A stretch of 56,224 nucleotides of DNA, taken from the NCBI GenBank assembly GCA_049454855.1, contig JBMUAQ010000002.1, positions 1 to 56,224 of the forward strand. The letters run 5' to 3'. The notes beneath the pieces are model-generated. The model was not told the DNA's origin. It did no database searches and worked only from the letters and a program-made list of their open reading frames with translations. This document shows positions 26,164 to 56,224 of the stretch, piece after piece (position 1 is the stretch's first letter; each line of letters opens with the position of its first letter). A program made the position numbers and the translations under genes. The DNA is from Ilumatobacteraceae bacterium. Its GTDB lineage: Bacteria > Actinomycetota > Acidimicrobiia > Acidimicrobiales > Ilumatobacteraceae.

Positions 26164-26240
<77 letters not shown>

Positions 26241-49078: not shown

Positions 49079-49983
49079 GCGAACAACCCCGAACAGAAGC
49101 GGACCGTCTCGCGCACGAGCACGTCGGGTGCCTCCCACGGCACGAAGTGGCCGACCCCGTCGAGGCGGTGCGGGCCGTCGATGCGGTCGAACACCACCGC
49201 GGCCATGCGGTCGAAGTCGGGGTAGATCACACGGTCGCTGGTGCCGAACAGGACCAGCGTGGGGGTGTGACCGTTGCGGCCGAACAGGGGACGTTCGGTG
49301 CGCTTCTCCGCGGAGAACGCGGACTCGTAGTTGCCGAACGACGCCCGGAGCCGGGCGGCATCGGCAAACGGCTCCGCATGCCACCGTGAATCCTCTGCCG
49401 TGAACGCGCCGGGGTGTGCCCAGTTGCGCGGGCCGTAGAACTGCTCCACGTACGCGATGCGCTTCTCCGCCGTGTCCAGTTCGGCAGCGAGGGCATCAGC
49501 GTCGGTGCCCTGGCGCACGAAGTAGTCGGCCGTCGCGGGGTCGGCGCGCGTCGCCATGCCCGCCATGCGCTCGCGGTCGTACGGCAGGGGCGAGTTGAAC
49601 ACCACCATGCGGTCCACCCATCCGGGGAAACGCAGCGCGCACTCCTGCACCACGGGGCCACCGAGATCGCCACCCATCAGCACCACGCTGCGGTGACCCA
49701 GCTCGTCACGCACCAGCGAATGGAGGTCGAGCGCGTGCGACACGACGTCGTTGAAACCGTCGGGGGCGACATCCGACTCACCGAAGCCGCGCAGGTCGGG
49801 CACCACCACGTCGAAGCCCGCATCCGCGAACCGCTGTGCGACCCGTGCATACAGGCGCTTCGTCTCCGGCCAGCCGTGCACGCACACGAGGACAGGGGCG
49901 TCGTCACGGCCCGACGGGAACAACCAGTGGGCCTGTGCGAAGCCGCGGCCGCGCGCGAACCGGGTGGGCGGCAGCCCGTTCAT
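49075..49983 (-). CDS. Alpha/beta hydrolase (epoxide-hydrolase/haloalkane-dehalogenase-like)
   Basis: Motifs VCVHGWPET, PDLRGFGESD, and MGGDLGG (Asp nucleophile position). Confidence 0.8.
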   Translation of the reverse strand: MNGLPPTRFARGRGFAQAHWLFPSGRDDAPVLVCVHGWPETKRLYARVAQRFADAGFDVVVPDLRGFGESDVAPDGFNDVVSHALDLHSLVRDELGHRSVVLMGGDLGGPVVQECALRFPGWVDRMVVFNSPLPYDRERMAGMATRADPATADYFVRQGTDADALAAELDTAEKRIAYVEQFYGPRNWAHPGAFTAEDSRWHAEPFADAARLRASFGNYESAFSAEKRTERPLFGRNGHTPTLVLFGTSDRVIYPDFDRMAAVVFDRIDGPHRLDGVGHFVPWEAPDVLVRETVRFCSGLFA

Positions 49984-50615
49984 GACGGGTTCGGACGGGC
50001 GGTGGTCATCGACAGCACCCCGAGCCCGATGAACAGGAACCCCGACACCCAGCGACGCATCACGTGCACTGCCCTCCCCCGCACCAGGCGGTCACGCAGG
50101 CGCGCCGCGAGCAGCACGTAGGAGGAATTGAACAGTGAGGCGAGCAGCACGAACACCGCCGCCAGCACCAGCGACTGCGTGGTTGCGCTGTCGGACGCGG
50201 GGTCGACGAACTGCGGGAAGACGGACAGGAAGAACAGGGCTGTCTTGGGGTTGAGCACGTTCACGAACACCCCCTGGCGGAACACGAGGGACCGGTCCAC
50301 GTGCGAGGTGTCCTCGGCAAGGGCGGGCGGCACCGTGAGCAGAGTGCGCACGCCCGTCCACACGAGATAGACGACCCCCACCCACTTGATCGACTCGAAC
50401 AGCGCCTGCGAGGTGGCGATCACGGCGCTCAGGCCCAGCGAAGCCAGCGTTGCCTGCAGGGCGTCACCCACCTCCAGGCCGGCCACGGCGGTGAGCCCGG
50501 CGGTGCGACCGTCGGCGAGGGTGCGGTTCAGCATGAAGATCACGGCCGGTCCGGGGATCAAAAGGAGCACCACGGTGGCCCCGATGAAGGCCAGGAGACT
50601 CGCTGTATCGGGCAC
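49980..50615 (-). CDS. LysE-family amino-acid exporter
   Basis: Trimmed to GTG (complement of 50613-50615). Motifs LLAFIGATVVLLLIPGPAV and NPKTALFFLSVFPQF. Its stop overlaps the next gene's ATG (ATGA). Confidence 0.8.
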   Translation of the reverse strand: MPDTASLLAFIGATVVLLLIPGPAVIFMLNRTLADGRTAGLTAVAGLEVGDALQATLASLGLSAVIATSQALFESIKWVGVVYLVWTGVRTLLTVPPALAEDTSHVDRSLVFRQGVFVNVLNPKTALFFLSVFPQFVDPASDSATTQSLVLAAVFVLLASLFNSSYVLLAARLRDRLVRGRAVHVMRRWVSGFLFIGLGVLSMTTARPNPS

Positions 50616-50691
50616 GGAATCGACTGTATCCGCACCCGTCCGCAACGGTCCCGCAACGAAACGGCCGCCTCCTGCGGTGCCCCCGGGAGGA

Positions 50692-50729
50692 TTAACGCTC
50701 CGTGTGCGCCCGTGTAACACACGCGAAAC
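50692..50729 (+). promoter_or_regulatory. Putative GlnR double box upstream of amt
   Basis: TTAAC-n6-TGTGC-n6-GTAAC-n6-GAAAC with exact 5-6-5-6-5-6-5 spacing. The distal pair GTAAC(50714-50718)-n6-GAAAC(50725-50729) matches the actinobacterial gTnAc-n6-GaAAc consensus. It ends 60 nt upstream of the amt ATG. Confidence 0.45.
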
Positions 50730-50789: not shown

Positions 50790-52353
<1,564 letters not shown>

Positions 52354-52384
52354 TTCGACGGGCCGCAGCAACGGGGCCCAGGGC

Positions 52385-53152
52385 TCAGTTGGCCAGTGAC
52401 CCGCCGTAGATCTGCCACGCCAGCAGGCTCTTCGCCACCAGGCTGAGCACCAGGTACGTCTTCTCGCCGTGCACGTAGTCGGCCCATCGGCCGGCACCGC
52501 GGTACTGCAGCCACTGGTTCAGGCCGAACGAGAAGAAGAGCACCTGCTCCACCACCACGATGAAGAACACGAACGTGGGGACCGTCTCGGCGCCCACCAC
52601 GTTCACCCAGATGCCGATCCACGGCAGGGCACCGGCGACCGTGCCGAACCAGAACGGCTTCATGTTCGTCGTGGTGCGGCCGGGCGGGTTCCCCGACTCC
52701 TGCAGCCACCCGAACAGGATCATGCCCACGTTCGCGCCGATCAAAGCGAGCACCGCGGTGATGTCGGTGATGCCCGAGTACGCCGCGATGAGAATCAGCA
52801 TCAGGGTGGCACTGAACGAGTACTCCACCCAGCGGAACCTGTTGATGCCGGCGCGCAGGCCTGTCTCGTAGCGGTCGCGCCACACGGTGGCGGTGAGCCC
52901 GTGGTCGAGCGCTGCGAGAAGGAGGAACAGCGCCACTGCCGGGCCGACCGGGAGGTCGAGGAACTCTGCCGGCGTGCCGAGCCGCGTGCCGGGAGGGCCC
53001 TCGGGGAAGTTGGAGGTGATGGTGATCGCGAAGTCACCCGCCATCACGGCAATGAGCACGGCCTGCGCGAGGTGCAGTGCCGCCAGCACGATGTTCCATG
53101 TGCGCAGGTTCGAGAGCCGCGCCGGGGGGATGTCGATGGTGCCCGTAGTCAT
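52385..53152 (-). CDS. Heliorhodopsin (7-TM retinal protein)
   Basis: 255 aa. Blocks shared with characterised heliorhodopsins: NRFRWVEYSFSATLM (Glu110, codon 52823-52825), MILFGWLQE, KPFWFGTVAGALPWIG, GEKTYLVLSLVAKSLLAWQIYGGSL (Lys241, AAG at 52430-52432). His27 and His84 are also present. Confidence 0.9.
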   Translation of the reverse strand: MTTGTIDIPPARLSNLRTWNIVLAALHLAQAVLIAVMAGDFAITITSNFPEGPPGTRLGTPAEFLDLPVGPAVALFLLLAALDHGLTATVWRDRYETGLRAGINRFRWVEYSFSATLMLILIAAYSGITDITAVLALIGANVGMILFGWLQESGNPPGRTTTNMKPFWFGTVAGALPWIGIWVNVVGAETVPTFVFFIVVVEQVLFFSFGLNQWLQYRGAGRWADYVHGEKTYLVLSLVAKSLLAWQIYGGSLAN

Positions 53153-53161
53153 GGACCCAAA

Positions 53162-53767
53162 CTAGGCCCGGGCCACTGATGCACGCTGTGATTCGCGGCG
53201 GGCAGAGAGCTCCAGCCACGCCACGATGACGTTCGTCAGCAGGGCCAGCGTGGTGGTGCCGATCAGCGTGGGGCTGGCGAGCAGCACCGAGTACACCTCC
53301 CAGCTGAGCAGGCAGCCCATGCCGAGCGCGATGGAACCAGGCGACACGGCGGACGTCGAGAGCCCGCTGCGGCGCGACCGCCACGAGCGGATGATCTGCG
53401 GCGCGCGCGACAGGGTGAACGCGAACAGAGCCGGGTTCACCAGCCACAGCGGCCCCGCGGCACCTGCGGCAACAACCACGAGGAACACGCCCGCGATGCG
53501 CGGCACCACGCGACGGGCATCCTCGGTGATGGCGAGCACCACCCGCGCGTTGATCACACCGGTGGCCACGGTGCTGACGACGAGCGACGGCGAGCCGGTG
53601 CGGATGCCGTAGCCGAGCCAGGCAGCGCTGGAGCTGGTCATCAGCATCCACATCGCGAGGCTCACTCCGTGCGAATGGCCGAGCGACTTCACCCGTCTCG
53701 CCTGCGGGAGACCCTGCATCACCCCGAGAACCGCCGCGATGAACCCGAAGATCTCCGCGGCGAGCAC
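53162..53767 (-). CDS. 7-TM double PQ-loop (SWEET/MtN3-like) membrane protein
   Basis: GTG start. Two PQ motifs, each after a first helix: VMQGLPQARRV and LSRAPQIIRSW. My hydropathy reading gives a 3+1+3 TM arrangement. Ends 9 nt before the heliorhodopsin ATG. Confidence 0.7.
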   Translation of the reverse strand: MLAAEIFGFIAAVLGVMQGLPQARRVKSLGHSHGVSLAMWMLMTSSSAAWLGYGIRTGSPSLVVSTVATGVINARVVLAITEDARRVVPRIAGVFLVVVAAGAAGPLWLVNPALFAFTLSRAPQIIRSWRSRRSGLSTSAVSPGSIALGMGCLLSWEVYSVLLASPTLIGTTTLALLTNVIVAWLELSARRESQRASVARA

Positions 53768-53776
53768 GGAACGAAC

Positions 53777-54499
53777 CTAGTCGGCGATCTCCACGCGCAC
53801 GCGCTTGTTGCCCTTGCCCTTGGACTCCAGCTTGGTGACACGCAGCGAACCCACCTCGCGCGTGGAGCGCACATGGGTGCCGCCGTCGGCCTGCCTGTCG
53901 AGACCGACGATGTCGACCACGCGGATCTCGCTCACGCTCTCGGGGATGAGCGACACCTTCGTGCGGATGAGGTCCTCGTCGGTCACCGCGGTGCCCCGCG
54001 GCAGGAACGACACCTCTATCGGGTGGTCGGCCGCGATTGCCTCGGACACCAGCTGTTCCACGCGCGCCGCGAAACCCTCGGGCAGGGGGTCGAACTCGAA
54101 GTCCATGCGCGCCGACAGCGGTTCCATGTTCCCGCCCGTGACGGGCACCTTCCACTCGTTCCAGATCACCCCGCACAGAACGTGCATCGCGGTGTGCGTG
54201 CGCATCAGGCGGTGGCGACGGTCCCAGTCGATCCCGCACCGCACCGTCGCACCCGGAGCGGGTGCTGCCGAGCCGTCGGCCAGCCAGTGCACAACCTCGT
54301 CGCCGTTCTTTCGCACATCGACGACCCCTGCATCCCCGATGGTGCCGGTGTCATGGGGCTGGCCGCCGCCCGTGTAATAGAACACGGTGCGGTCGAGCAC
54401 CACCCCGGCGCGGCCGTTGTCGTCGGTGCGCACGTCGAGCACCACCGCGTCACACTCGCGCAGGTATGCGTCGCGCAGGAAGAGAAGGTCGGTGGCCAC
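53777..54499 (-). CDS. alaX: AlaX-type alanyl-tRNA editing domain protein
   Basis: GTG start. Contains YYTGGGQPHDTG, the Zn motif HTAMH, and ADGGTHV, as in AlaRS second additional domain proteins. Confidence 0.8.
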   Translation of the reverse strand: MATDLLFLRDAYLRECDAVVLDVRTDDNGRAGVVLDRTVFYYTGGGQPHDTGTIGDAGVVDVRKNGDEVVHWLADGSAAPAPGATVRCGIDWDRRHRLMRTHTAMHVLCGVIWNEWKVPVTGGNMEPLSARMDFEFDPLPEGFAARVEQLVSEAIAADHPIEVSFLPRGTAVTDEDLIRTKVSLIPESVSEIRVVDIVGLDRQADGGTHVRSTREVGSLRVTKLESKGKGNKRVRVEIAD

Positions 54500-54510
54500 G
54501 CAAGCCGCCG

Positions 54511-55185
54511 TCAGACCTGGTTCACCAGCTCGGCGACCGGGGTGACCATGCCCACGTAGAAGCTGCCGAACTCGGCGTACTCGGCCGATGCCTCGTCGAA
54601 GCGCATCGTGTACACCACTTCCTTCAGGTCATCAGGGTGCACCGCGAACAGCGTCACCCCCCACTCGAAGTCGTCGAGCCCGGCGGAGCCGGTGACCAGT
54701 TGCACCACGCGGCCGGCGAAGGTGCGGCCACTCCTGCCGTGCTCCTCCATGAGTTCCTTGCGACGCTCGAACTCGAGGGTGAACCAGTTCTGCCCCGGGT
54801 TGCGGCGCTTGCTCATGGGGTAGAAGCACCACGCATTCTTTCCGGCCGGCGGCAGCTGCGGGTACAGGCGCGCCTGGATCATGGCCTCGGGCACGCCCTG
54901 CGCGTACTCCGACACCTCGGTGAGCGACACGTACGAATCCACGATGTCGAGGCCGGCGTGCTGCACCACGGTCTGCAGCGCCTTCAGGTCGCGCATGTCG
55001 GACGACAGCGCCATCACCGCGACGTCGGCCTTGTGCCCCAGCATCGACACCGTGACCACGGTGACGCCCGCGTTCTCCGCCGACTTCACGCCGTTCACCA
55101 GCGCCTCACCGTCGAAGCGGGGGGTGGTCCTGCAGAACAGGTGCAGCACCGCCATGCCGACCGAGGGGGACATCGATTCGCTCAT
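54511..55185 (-). CDS. chdC: Chlorite-dismutase-family coproheme decarboxylase (ChdC/HemQ)
   Basis: The ATG (complement of 55183-55185) overlaps the upstream stop (ATGA). Motifs CFYPMSKRR, NWFTLEFERRKELMEEHG, FEWGVTLF, FYVG. Confidence 0.8.
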   Translation of the reverse strand: MSESMSPSVGMAVLHLFCRTTPRFDGEALVNGVKSAENAGVTVVTVSMLGHKADVAVMALSSDMRDLKALQTVVQHAGLDIVDSYVSLTEVSEYAQGVPEAMIQARLYPQLPPAGKNAWCFYPMSKRRNPGQNWFTLEFERRKELMEEHGRSGRTFAGRVVQLVTGSAGLDDFEWGVTLFAVHPDDLKEVVYTMRFDEASAEYAEFGSFYVGMVTPVAELVNQV

Positions 55186-56078
55186 GACGACCAACCTACC
55201 GACCGCGCGGCAAGCACCGCCGAGGCGAACCGCTCGGCCGCGCCCGCATCGGTGTGGAGGAACAGGGACGGCTCGGTGAGCTCCAGTTCCATCAGCACGG
55301 GGGTTCCGGCCGACCCGCGCACCACGTCGACACGCGCATACAGAGGGGCCCTGCCGAACCTCCGCGTGACGAACGACATCACCTCGTCAGCCAGCTCCAT
55401 CTCCTGGTCGTTCGCACGCCGGGACGATATGTCCTCCTCGGCATACAGGCCCTCGGCCCATCGGTTGTTGCCGTCGGAGAGAATCGCGGCCTTGCGGAAC
55501 GCGTGGCTGAACGTGCCGCCGAAGTAGAGGAGGCCGGTCTCGCCGTTGTCATCGATGAACCTCTGGTACGGCTGCACCATCACCTTCTTCCCTGCATCGA
55601 GCAACGAGGTGATGTGCGCCGCTGCACCAGACGGGTTCGCCGTGTGTCGTGCGGTGTCGTTCGAGCCGGCGCTGACCGTTGGCTTCACCACCACGTCACC
55701 CTTGATCAGGTCGTTCGCCAGCACGAGATCCTCTGCGCCGCGCACGAAAGTGGTGGGGATCACGGGGATGCCGGCCTCGGCGAGCTCGCCGAGATACGTC
55801 TTGTCGGTGTTCCAGCGCAGCACCTCCGCGCTGTTCAGCAGCGGAACCAGCGTCGACACACGGTCGATCCACGCGAGGAACTCGGGCATGCGCCGGTGGT
55901 AGTCCCACGGCGAGCGCACGATGGCCGCATCGAAGCGAGACCAGTCGACCGATGCATCGTCCCAGTCGACGATCTCGGCGGTGACACCACGGTCACCGAG
56001 TGCACGCACGGCGAGCGGCAGGTCGGTGTCGAGGTGCCGCGCCTCCGCCACGCTCACGAGCGCAACGGGACGCGGCAT
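55182..56078 (-). CDS. ATP-grasp domain protein (RimK/glutathione-synthetase-like fold)
   Basis: 298 aa. Contains WNTDKTYL, VVKPTVSAGS, VMVQPY and LMELELTEPSLF, an ATP-grasp-like pattern. Confidence 0.7.
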   Translation of the reverse strand: MPRPVALVSVAEARHLDTDLPLAVRALGDRGVTAEIVDWDDASVDWSRFDAAIVRSPWDYHRRMPEFLAWIDRVSTLVPLLNSAEVLRWNTDKTYLGELAEAGIPVIPTTFVRGAEDLVLANDLIKGDVVVKPTVSAGSNDTARHTANPSGAAAHITSLLDAGKKVMVQPYQRFIDDNGETGLLYFGGTFSHAFRKAAILSDGNNRWAEGLYAEEDISSRRANDQEMELADEVMSFVTRRFGRAPLYARVDVVRGSAGTPVLMELELTEPSLFLHTDAGAAERFASAVLAARSVGWSS

Positions 56079-56116
56079 CCCTCGTACCTGACCTGTGACG
56101 ACCCTGCGGTGGGTGA

Positions 56117-56224
56117 CTAGAAGTCGCCCATCCCGCCGTGGTCGTGACCGCCGGCAGCGGCCTCCTCCGGCTTGTCGGCGATGACGGCCTCGGTGGTGAG
56201 GAACAGCGCGGCGATCGACGCGGC
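56117..56224 (-). CDS. groEL: Chaperonin GroEL, C-terminal 35 codons only (5' part lies outside the window)
   Basis: My minus-strand translation reads [35 protein letters not shown]. This is the conserved GroEL C-terminal helix plus a GGM-type tail. Confidence 0.85.

Follow-up and report, generated by a model that had tools for sequence, protein, structure and literature searches.

Heliorhodopsin beside a bacterial SWEET-fold gene: an adjacency probably owed to gene order within one freshwater Acidimicrobiia lineage

Introduction

A 56,224-nucleotide (nt) stretch of DNA from an Ilumatobacteraceae bacterium (GenBank assembly GCA_049454855.1, contig JBMUAQ010000002.1; the whole stretch is hereafter the window) carries a heliorhodopsin (HeR) gene directly after a gene for a membrane protein with two PQ-loop repeats and a SWEET-like fold (the PQ gene). 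Our comparison of relatives indicates that this adjacency is probably a lineage-restricted gene order, in a variable slot that ends a conserved gene string, and not a conserved functional pairing. We read it as lineage-restricted synteny because the genes of the slot come and go independently. The original prediction, made from the sequence of the window, had put the pair forward as a candidate light-linked transport module, and it is partly supported: its observation is confirmed and its structural inference is well supported, but its functional inference is weakly supported, the adjacency being limited to one syntenic lineage and broken there by loss, insertion and rearrangement.

HeR roles are being worked out partner by partner. 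A light-controlled SWEET-fold transporter, if real, would be a HeR partner of a new kind and might serve as an optogenetic tool, a prospect that the comparative data make less likely. Adjacency alone is weak evidence here because the neighbourhood is a variable slot after a string of housekeeping genes. In the model that we favour, PQ and HeR, both genuine and ordinary genes, would owe their neighbourhood to descent, and the string ATP-grasp, hemQ, alaXM, PQ, HeR would be characteristic of one freshwater Acidimicrobiia lineage. The region 3' of alaX would be the variable slot, in which PQ, HeR, an AAA_33 gene, arsenic-resistance (ars)-type genes, Rieske oxygenase genes and amtB-glnK may each have been gained and lost independently. 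The features at issue are the following.

52385..53152, minus strand: heliorhodopsin (HeR) gene, 255 amino acids (aa), ATG start (PF18761, NCBIfam HeR equivalog, alignment to 48C12)
53153..53161, minus strand: spacer TTTGGGTCC, 9 nt, from the PQ stop codon TAG to the HeR start codon ATG (53150-53152), read directly from the sequence
53162..53767, minus strand: PQ gene, 201-aa protein with seven transmembrane helices (7-TM) and a double PQ-loop (SWEET) fold (Pfam, AlphaFold2, Foldseek, homologues)

Results

The PQ gene is linked more faithfully to alaX than to heliorhodopsin

We scanned a single genome for each GTDB species for the PQ gene and obtained 13 loci, every one of them from metagenome-assembled genomes (MAGs) of Acidimicrobiia or Actinomycetota. 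The order ATP-grasp-hemQ-alaX-PQ is kept in all 13, as far upstream as the contigs reach. The invariant neighbour of PQ is alaXM: alaX lies directly upstream of PQ in every one of these genome loci, and also in L100 and L112. The downstream side varies. In 6 loci (L002, L006, L007, L008, L011, L012) HeR comes close behind PQ, and in 2 it comes after inserted genes: one for an AAA_33 P-loop kinase-like protein in L001 and, in L003, one for an ArsR-LMWPc fusion and another for a second LMWPc protein. HeR is absent within 6 kb of PQ in 3 (L004, L009, L013), and in L009 a Na/Ca-exchanger gene stands directly after PQ. In the other 2 the contig ends before the HeR position can be judged.

A further arrangement is seen in L112, a 336-kb contig on which PQ is 61% identical to that of the window. 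The order there is alaX, PQ, an amtB-glnK pair on the opposite strand with glnK next to PQ, HeR and LysE. Since these opposite-strand genes lie between PQ and HeR in both L112 and L113, there can be no read-through transcription from PQ to HeR in these loci. A LysE gene also stands directly 3' of HeR in L006, L007, L022 and L023, relatives that have no amtB-glnK at that place. More distant double-PQ homologues occur in unrelated contexts without HeR, one of them beside an MmyB-like regulator and sugar-catabolic genes; two further distant contigs end at the PQ gene, so that the downstream side is out of view. As a separate observation, arsenic-resistance-type genes are found near HeR in some relatives, between PQ and HeR in L003 (663-2017) and, as a MIP channel gene and an LMWPc gene, directly after HeR in L100 (4838-5938).

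We also approached the locus from the other side. A metagenome scan centred on HeR gave 80 loci with the HeR proteins closest to the query (62-76% identity), of which 54, those with at least 650 nt upstream of HeR, are evaluable. Only 3 of these 54 carry a PQ gene (L021, L022, L023), and all 3 belong to the alaX-anchored syntenic lineage. In L022 PQ and HeR are set apart by an AAA_33 gene, the one that L001 also carries. Two other loci of the 54, L017 and L020, have HeR directly behind ATP-grasp-hemQ-alaX, without PQ. In a further arrangement of the same lineage two Rieske genes occupy the PQ slot, giving the order alaX-Rieske-Rieske-HeR with another close HeR (L104-107). Yet another close-HeR context lies between genes for a flavin reductase and a solute-binding protein, together with an aminotransferase gene. 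A family hidden Markov model able to detect the SemiSWEETs of the PDB found no further PQ-loop open reading frames (ORFs) in the 80 HeR loci. Recurrence across HeR diversity or in independent lineages, the mark of an HeR-partner operon, is therefore not a property of the PQ pairing. The original prediction had called for such a survey and had staked the pairing on adjacency being conserved in at least one relative. The adjacency does recur in relatives, inside one freshwater Acidimicrobiia lineage only.

The AAA_33 gene (protein motif MRR[VI]LWLNGAFG[AV]GKST...) is worth separate mention. Its two copies, L001 6600-7133 and L022 3100-3624, sit in loci of different PQ/HeR clades, and the gene may be either a mover from lineage to lineage or a long-standing resident of the slot with a history of repeated loss.

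PQ and heliorhodopsin differ in their evolutionary history

The nearest relative of the window is L011. DNA identity between the two is about 0.9 in alaX and in HeR and falls to about 0.5-0.77 across PQ and its edges (window ~53070-53820, compared with L011 5950-6700). The proteins follow the same pattern, with 59% identity for PQ, 93% for HeR and 90% for AlaX. Against each of the other PQ clades sampled, the L011 PQ allele reaches no more than 54-59% identity. Because PQ identity is low between flanks that are ~90% identical, the alignments indicate a cassette-like replacement of the PQ allele, without HeR, between the window and L011. Across the sampled loci there are five PQ clades with 52-66% mutual identity, between which HeR is 73-89% identical. 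Pairwise PQ identities track those of AlaX (r 0.90) better than those of HeR (r 0.71).

The junction and the surrounding genes

Around the junction, ATP-grasp, hemQ, alaXM, PQ and HeR form a packed same-strand string, with PQ and HeR at its 3' end. The ATP-grasp and hemQ genes overlap by 13 nt; the gaps are 11 nt between hemQ and alaXM, 9 nt between alaXM and PQ and 9 nt between PQ and HeR. The neighbours are as follows.

53777..54499, minus strand: AlaXM-type alanyl-tRNA editing protein gene (tRNA_SAD and tRNA-synt_2c domains; NCBIfam AlaXM 246 bits, cutoff 300)
54511..55194, minus strand: hemQ/chdC-like gene, coproheme decarboxylase/chlorite-dismutase family (PF06778, E 8e-47)
55182..56078, minus strand: DcsG-like ATP-grasp ligase gene, the first visible gene of the string (NCBIfam DcsG 285 bits, cutoff 360; Pfam DcsG_N in relatives)
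50790..52353, plus strand: amtB-glnK, ammonium transporter and PII protein, convergent with HeR (PF00909, E 3e-118; PF00543, E 5e-31)
49980..50720, minus strand: LysE-type exporter gene (PF01810, E 6.5e-32)

The hemQ-like gene also matches the NCBIfam hydrogen-peroxide-dependent heme synthase model at 223 bits, below its cutoff.

The 9-nt same-strand spacing between PQ and a genuine HeR, as originally described, agrees with the coordinates and with the PF18761 and NCBIfam matches. Given this spacing, PQ and HeR are likely transcribed together in this genome. Co-transcription, which had been called plausible, gains from the relatives: across 10 adjacent loci (the window and 9 others: L002, L006, L007, L008, L011, L012, L021, L023 and L100) the gap is -4, 9, 10 or 13 nt. 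The window gap also falls under the limit of <10 bp on the same strand that has been applied to HeR-partner operons (PMC8612252). The absence of a visible terminator between the genes was borne out, as consensus scans for promoters and terminators over 51800-56224 place none between PQ and HeR, although such scans are weak and uninformative for high-GC Actinomycetota. The same region has two terminator-like matches, both within coding sequence and about as many as chance would give, and the convergent HeR/glnK intergenic region shows no significant hairpin on folding (z 0.08). We reject the idea that the PQ-HeR pair is a horizontally acquired island, because the GC content of both genes equals that of their flanks.

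In the window, PQ and HeR also share a reading frame. This recurs only in L001, where a gene is inserted between them. Read-through of the TAG in the window (53150-53164) would yield a 14-TM fusion with a topologically compatible junction, as both termini would be cytoplasmic. No PQ-HeR fusion protein occurs among 110 close PQ homologues or the best 150 listed representatives of the wider family, and none of these exceeds 289 aa.

The PQ protein is a bacterial double PQ-loop protein with a predicted SWEET fold

The PQ ORF starts with GTG and stops with TAG at 53162-53164. Its first PQ motif, GLPQARRV, holds P21-Q22 (53702-53707), and its second, RAPQIIRSW, holds P123-Q124 (53396-53401). The protein is a PF04193 (PQ-loop) member with two repeats: it matches the family over two stretches, as the original description of a 201-aa ORF with two PQ motifs had implied, with E 7.8e-10 and 38.8 bits against a curated cutoff of 22. 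Its MtN3_slv (PF03083) score of 22.7 bits is slightly below the cutoff of 23.7, and the NCBIfam SemiSWEET models, which also match over two stretches, score below theirs (SemiSWEET_2, 47 against 80; SemiSWEET_1, 39.5 against 200; SemiSWEET_3, 22 against 100). The protein therefore falls short of the SWEET and SemiSWEET profiles, though homology is clear from these alignments.

An AlphaFold2 model built from an alignment of 57 homologues has a mean pLDDT of 88.8 and a pTM of 0.84. Its helices span residues 2-29, 37-57, 60-80, 84-104 (the linker), 107-133, 143-162 and 166-200, and helix 107-133 is kinked at the second PQ. The full-length SWEET layout, seven TM helices in a 3+1+3 arrangement of two parallel three-helix bundles and an inversion linker helix, is well supported by this model, in keeping with the original proposal that the protein goes beyond the 3-TM SemiSWEET; we reject a 6-TM topology of two antiparallel three-helix units (3+3) because of the distinct linker helix 84-104 in the model. 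Searches of the PDB with Foldseek placed eukaryotic SWEETs at the top, with TM-scores of 0.67-0.71 for OsSWEET2b (5ctg) and 0.74 for AtSWEET13 (5xpd). Cystinosin was the second-best fold match (0.56-0.64), and SemiSWEETs span half the chain. By sequence, the PQ family profile matches only bacterial SemiSWEETs in the PDB, over the N-terminal bundle (E 2e-7 to 7e-5). Neither eukaryotic SWEETs nor cystinosin is among these PDB matches, and SWEETs do not appear even at E<=10. The two bundles of the protein have themselves diverged, with 29% identity over 41 aa. The strongly basic loops (23-36, 125-142 and the C-terminal tail) all lie on one side of the modelled helices, and by the positive-inside rule we therefore infer an N-out/C-in topology.

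These features invite comparison with several known systems. With eukaryotic SWEETs (5CTG, 5XPD), which are sugar uniporters, the PQ protein has in common the seven TM helices, the two three-helix bundles, each with a Pro hinge in its opening helix, the linker helix and the probable N-out/C-in orientation. The model superposes on them over essentially the whole chain, yet sequence identity is 12-16%, a Thr replaces the pocket Asn and the MtN3_slv score is just below the cutoff. The 3-TM bacterial SemiSWEETs (4QNC, 4X5M, 4RNG, 9KAX) are closest by sequence, to the N-terminal bundle, and have in common with it the PQ motif, a Ser-containing basic loop after that motif and the pocket Trp. A SemiSWEET is a homodimer of 85-100 aa chains, whereas the PQ protein joins two bundles and a linker helix in one 201-aa chain. 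With the PQ-loop/LCT carriers of PF04193, such as cystinosin and PQLC2, it shares a PQ...G(V/L)S motif after TM1 and TM5 and the 7-TM fold, but it is much shorter and lacks a lysosomal or N-terminal lumenal domain. The protein is thus most likely a bacterial SWEET-fold carrier that arose by duplication or fusion of a SemiSWEET within bacteria, independently of eukaryotic SWEETs. As such it would be expected to transport by alternating access, with the two PQ motifs as its hinges.

Such proteins had been called uncommon in bacteria. This holds for the 7-TM SWEET-type architecture, which is uncommon but known: homologues with seven TM helices have already been described in bacteria (Jia et al. 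2017, PMC5742349). Like the PQ protein, those are full-length prokaryotic proteins (6-7 TM helices) that are read as SemiSWEET fusions; the PQ subfamily differs from them in scoring as PQ-loop, not as MtN3_slv, in Pfam. The 110 close homologues, of ~200 aa, all come from metagenomes and MAGs of freshwater Actinomycetota or Acidimicrobiia. A profile search of 1.84 billion representatives found 946 clusters (defined at 50% identity) at E<=1e-3 and 147 at E<=1e-10, and the best 150 listed are mostly ~195-220 aa and matched over near-full length. Distant double-PQ homologues (37-41% identity; L108 3010-8636, L015 226-2446) are divergently oriented to a gene for an MmyB-like HTH_31/MLTR_LBD regulator. 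Neighbours in L108 include genes for a Zn-dependent alcohol dehydrogenase, an MFS sugar transporter, a sugar-phosphate isomerase-like protein and a GFO/IDH/MocA oxidoreductase. This neighbourhood suggests that the distant branch might handle a sugar or a polyol.

The binding pocket departs from the sugar-binding consensus

In SemiSWEET structures, one conserved Trp and Asn pair per bundle lines the sugar pocket. W50 of the PQ protein aligns with the pocket Trp, and T66 aligns with the pocket Asn. Bundle 2 has W156 and T172 at the same +16 spacing, this repeat-2 position being assigned from the spacing, not from an alignment. By residue comparison, then, both Trp residues appear to be kept and the Asn appears to be replaced by Thr, which makes the predicted pocket altered and non-canonical for sugar. 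More distant members of the PQ family retain the bundle-1 Asn. Within the subfamily of the window the bundle-1 Asn is replaced by Thr, or by Cys in some members, and the bundle-2 equivalent is an invariant Thr.

The heliorhodopsin is canonical

The HeR protein matches PF18761 with E 5e-93 and 311 bits and, with 262 bits where the cutoff is 100, the NCBIfam HeR equivalog. Its sequence aligns with the 48C12 structures 6su3 and 9ljj (E 2e-65), and the retinal-binding Lys241 (SLVAKS; codon 52430-52432) and the counter-ion Glu110 (RWVEYS) align with those of 48C12. By profile, TM7 Schiff-base Lys and TM3 Glu, it is a canonical heliorhodopsin.

Reported HeR partners are varied and include a membrane ABC transporter, OmrDE (PMC11109279). 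In another actinobacterium, glutamine synthetase (GS) is bound and activated by HeR (PMC9529153), and freshwater Actinobacteria transcribe HeR together with GS and NAD+ synthetase (PMC8612252). As in the HeR-GS, HeR-photolyase and HeR-OmrDE operons, the HeR of the window lies on the same strand directly beside a candidate partner gene. Those operons were grouped by recurrent neighbourhood and biochemically tested, whereas the PQ pairing is limited to one syntenic lineage and often decoupled. Neither the main texts of two HeR-neighbourhood papers nor the ten neighbour groups that have been published, with their tables, mention PQ-loop, SWEET or MtN3 proteins. Our literature search found no paper linking HeR functionally to PQ-loop or SWEET proteins, only unrelated co-mentions.

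Discussion

We consider it probable that PQ and HeR stand side by side by lineage-restricted gene order. Several observations weigh against this view. The junction is uniformly tight (-4, 9, 10 or 13 nt) in three PQ clades whose mutual identity is only ~60%, and a tight junction would also be the expected look of a selected, co-expressed pair. HeR stays within ~0.5-1.7 kb of PQ even in rearranged or interrupted loci. Finally, with HeR partners as varied as they are, an ABC transporter among them (PMC11109279), patchy conservation is compatible with an interaction limited to one lineage.

One could therefore envision a light-linked transport module, in which HeR, co-translated beside the SWEET-like carrier, binds it and alters transport in the light. 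The same-strand junction speaks for such a module, its gap being 9 nt in the window and ranging from -4 to 13 nt in the 9 further adjacent loci, and the C-terminal tail of PQ and the cytoplasmic N-terminus of HeR would face the same side if the positive-inside rule holds for the model. HeR elsewhere regulates operon neighbours, with precedents that include photolyase and a membrane transporter (PMC9529153, PMC9769723, PMC11109279), and light-enhanced sugar uptake in non-phototrophic Actinobacteria has been discussed (PMC8612252). The comparative record makes the module unlikely, however. PQ accompanies few of the closest HeR genes (3 of the 54 evaluable loci), each gene occurs without the other at the same locus, unrelated genes are inserted in three loci (L001, L022, L003) and opposite-strand genes intervene in L112 and L113. 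The PQ allele has apparently been swapped independently of HeR, fusions of the two are absent from the 110 homologues and best 150 listed representatives, and the sugar-binding Asn is not conserved. A specific version, in which co-translated HeR docks on the SWEET-fold carrier in a subset of freshwater Acidimicrobiia and confers light-dependent uptake or release of a solute (a sugar or small metabolite), strikes us as improbable. If true, it would be the first rhodopsin-uniporter pairing and a mechanism for light-stimulated substrate uptake in non-phototrophic Actinobacteria. Given how varied the reported HeR partners are, we hold a genuine HeR-carrier partnership of some kind to be possible but doubtful.

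The functional context of either gene could also lie with other neighbours. For HeR this might be nitrogen handling, through amtB-glnK and in analogy to HeR-GS, with PQ as a bystander. The amtB-glnK pair directly flanks HeR downstream and convergently in the window, L001 and L011, and upstream in L112 (5624-7205) and L113 (3433-5014), where amtB is divergent from HeR across a 114-nt gap. In L112 and L113 the Amt protein is 85% and PII 79% identical, and the pair adjoins HeR although PQ-HeR adjacency is broken. Activation of GS by HeR (PMC9529153) and co-transcription of HeR with GS and NAD+ synthetase (PMC8612252) fit this idea. Yet amtB-glnK lies on the strand opposite HeR, none of the 80 HeR-centred loci has it, nor do the loci of PQ clades B and C (L002, L006 and others), and the two arrangements in one lineage may represent a single rearrangement. 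We regard this explanation as very unlikely; as a lead it is equally weak as the HeR-carrier partnership, but it is consistent with the literature.

For PQ, the tie might run upstream: a carrier, for example of an amino-acid-like substrate, functionally linked to ATP-grasp, hemQ and alaXM, with HeR appended. The invariant alaX-PQ adjacency in the 13 genome loci, L100 and L112 and the closer correlation of PQ distances with those of AlaX are what this would lead one to expect, and PQ-loop relatives such as cystinosin, the second-best fold match, carry amino acids. On the other hand, alaX occurs without PQ in L017, L020 and L104, the most divergent PQ homologues are not beside alaX, and the conservation may be plain synteny. 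We know of no pathway that joins the four genes, and we think such a tie rather improbable.

Lineage-restricted gene order thus remains our preferred account of the locus. The comparison leaves several useful outcomes. One is a sizeable bacterial family of 7-TM SWEET-fold proteins, ~200 aa long and well modelled, whose pocket is apparently altered. Natural variants of the locus (PQ only, HeR only, both, or both separated) can serve as controls for locus-encoded HeR partners. Another is that amtB-glnK remains beside HeR where PQ adjacency is broken.

Additional features of the locus

In relatives, groEL always precedes the DcsG-like ATP-grasp gene (L100 1-2612; L112 1063-4264), and the groEL/ATP-grasp/hemQ/alaXM string is kept across the lineage without an obvious common pathway. 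The PII ORF of the window as called (51943-52353, 136 aa, TTG start) overlaps the end of amtB. The true glnK start is probably the ATG at ~52015, as GlnK of relatives has 112 aa and begins MKLITAIV. A tRNA-Met (CAT) at 26164-26240 on the minus strand is the sole Rfam/ARAGORN match in the whole 56-kb window.

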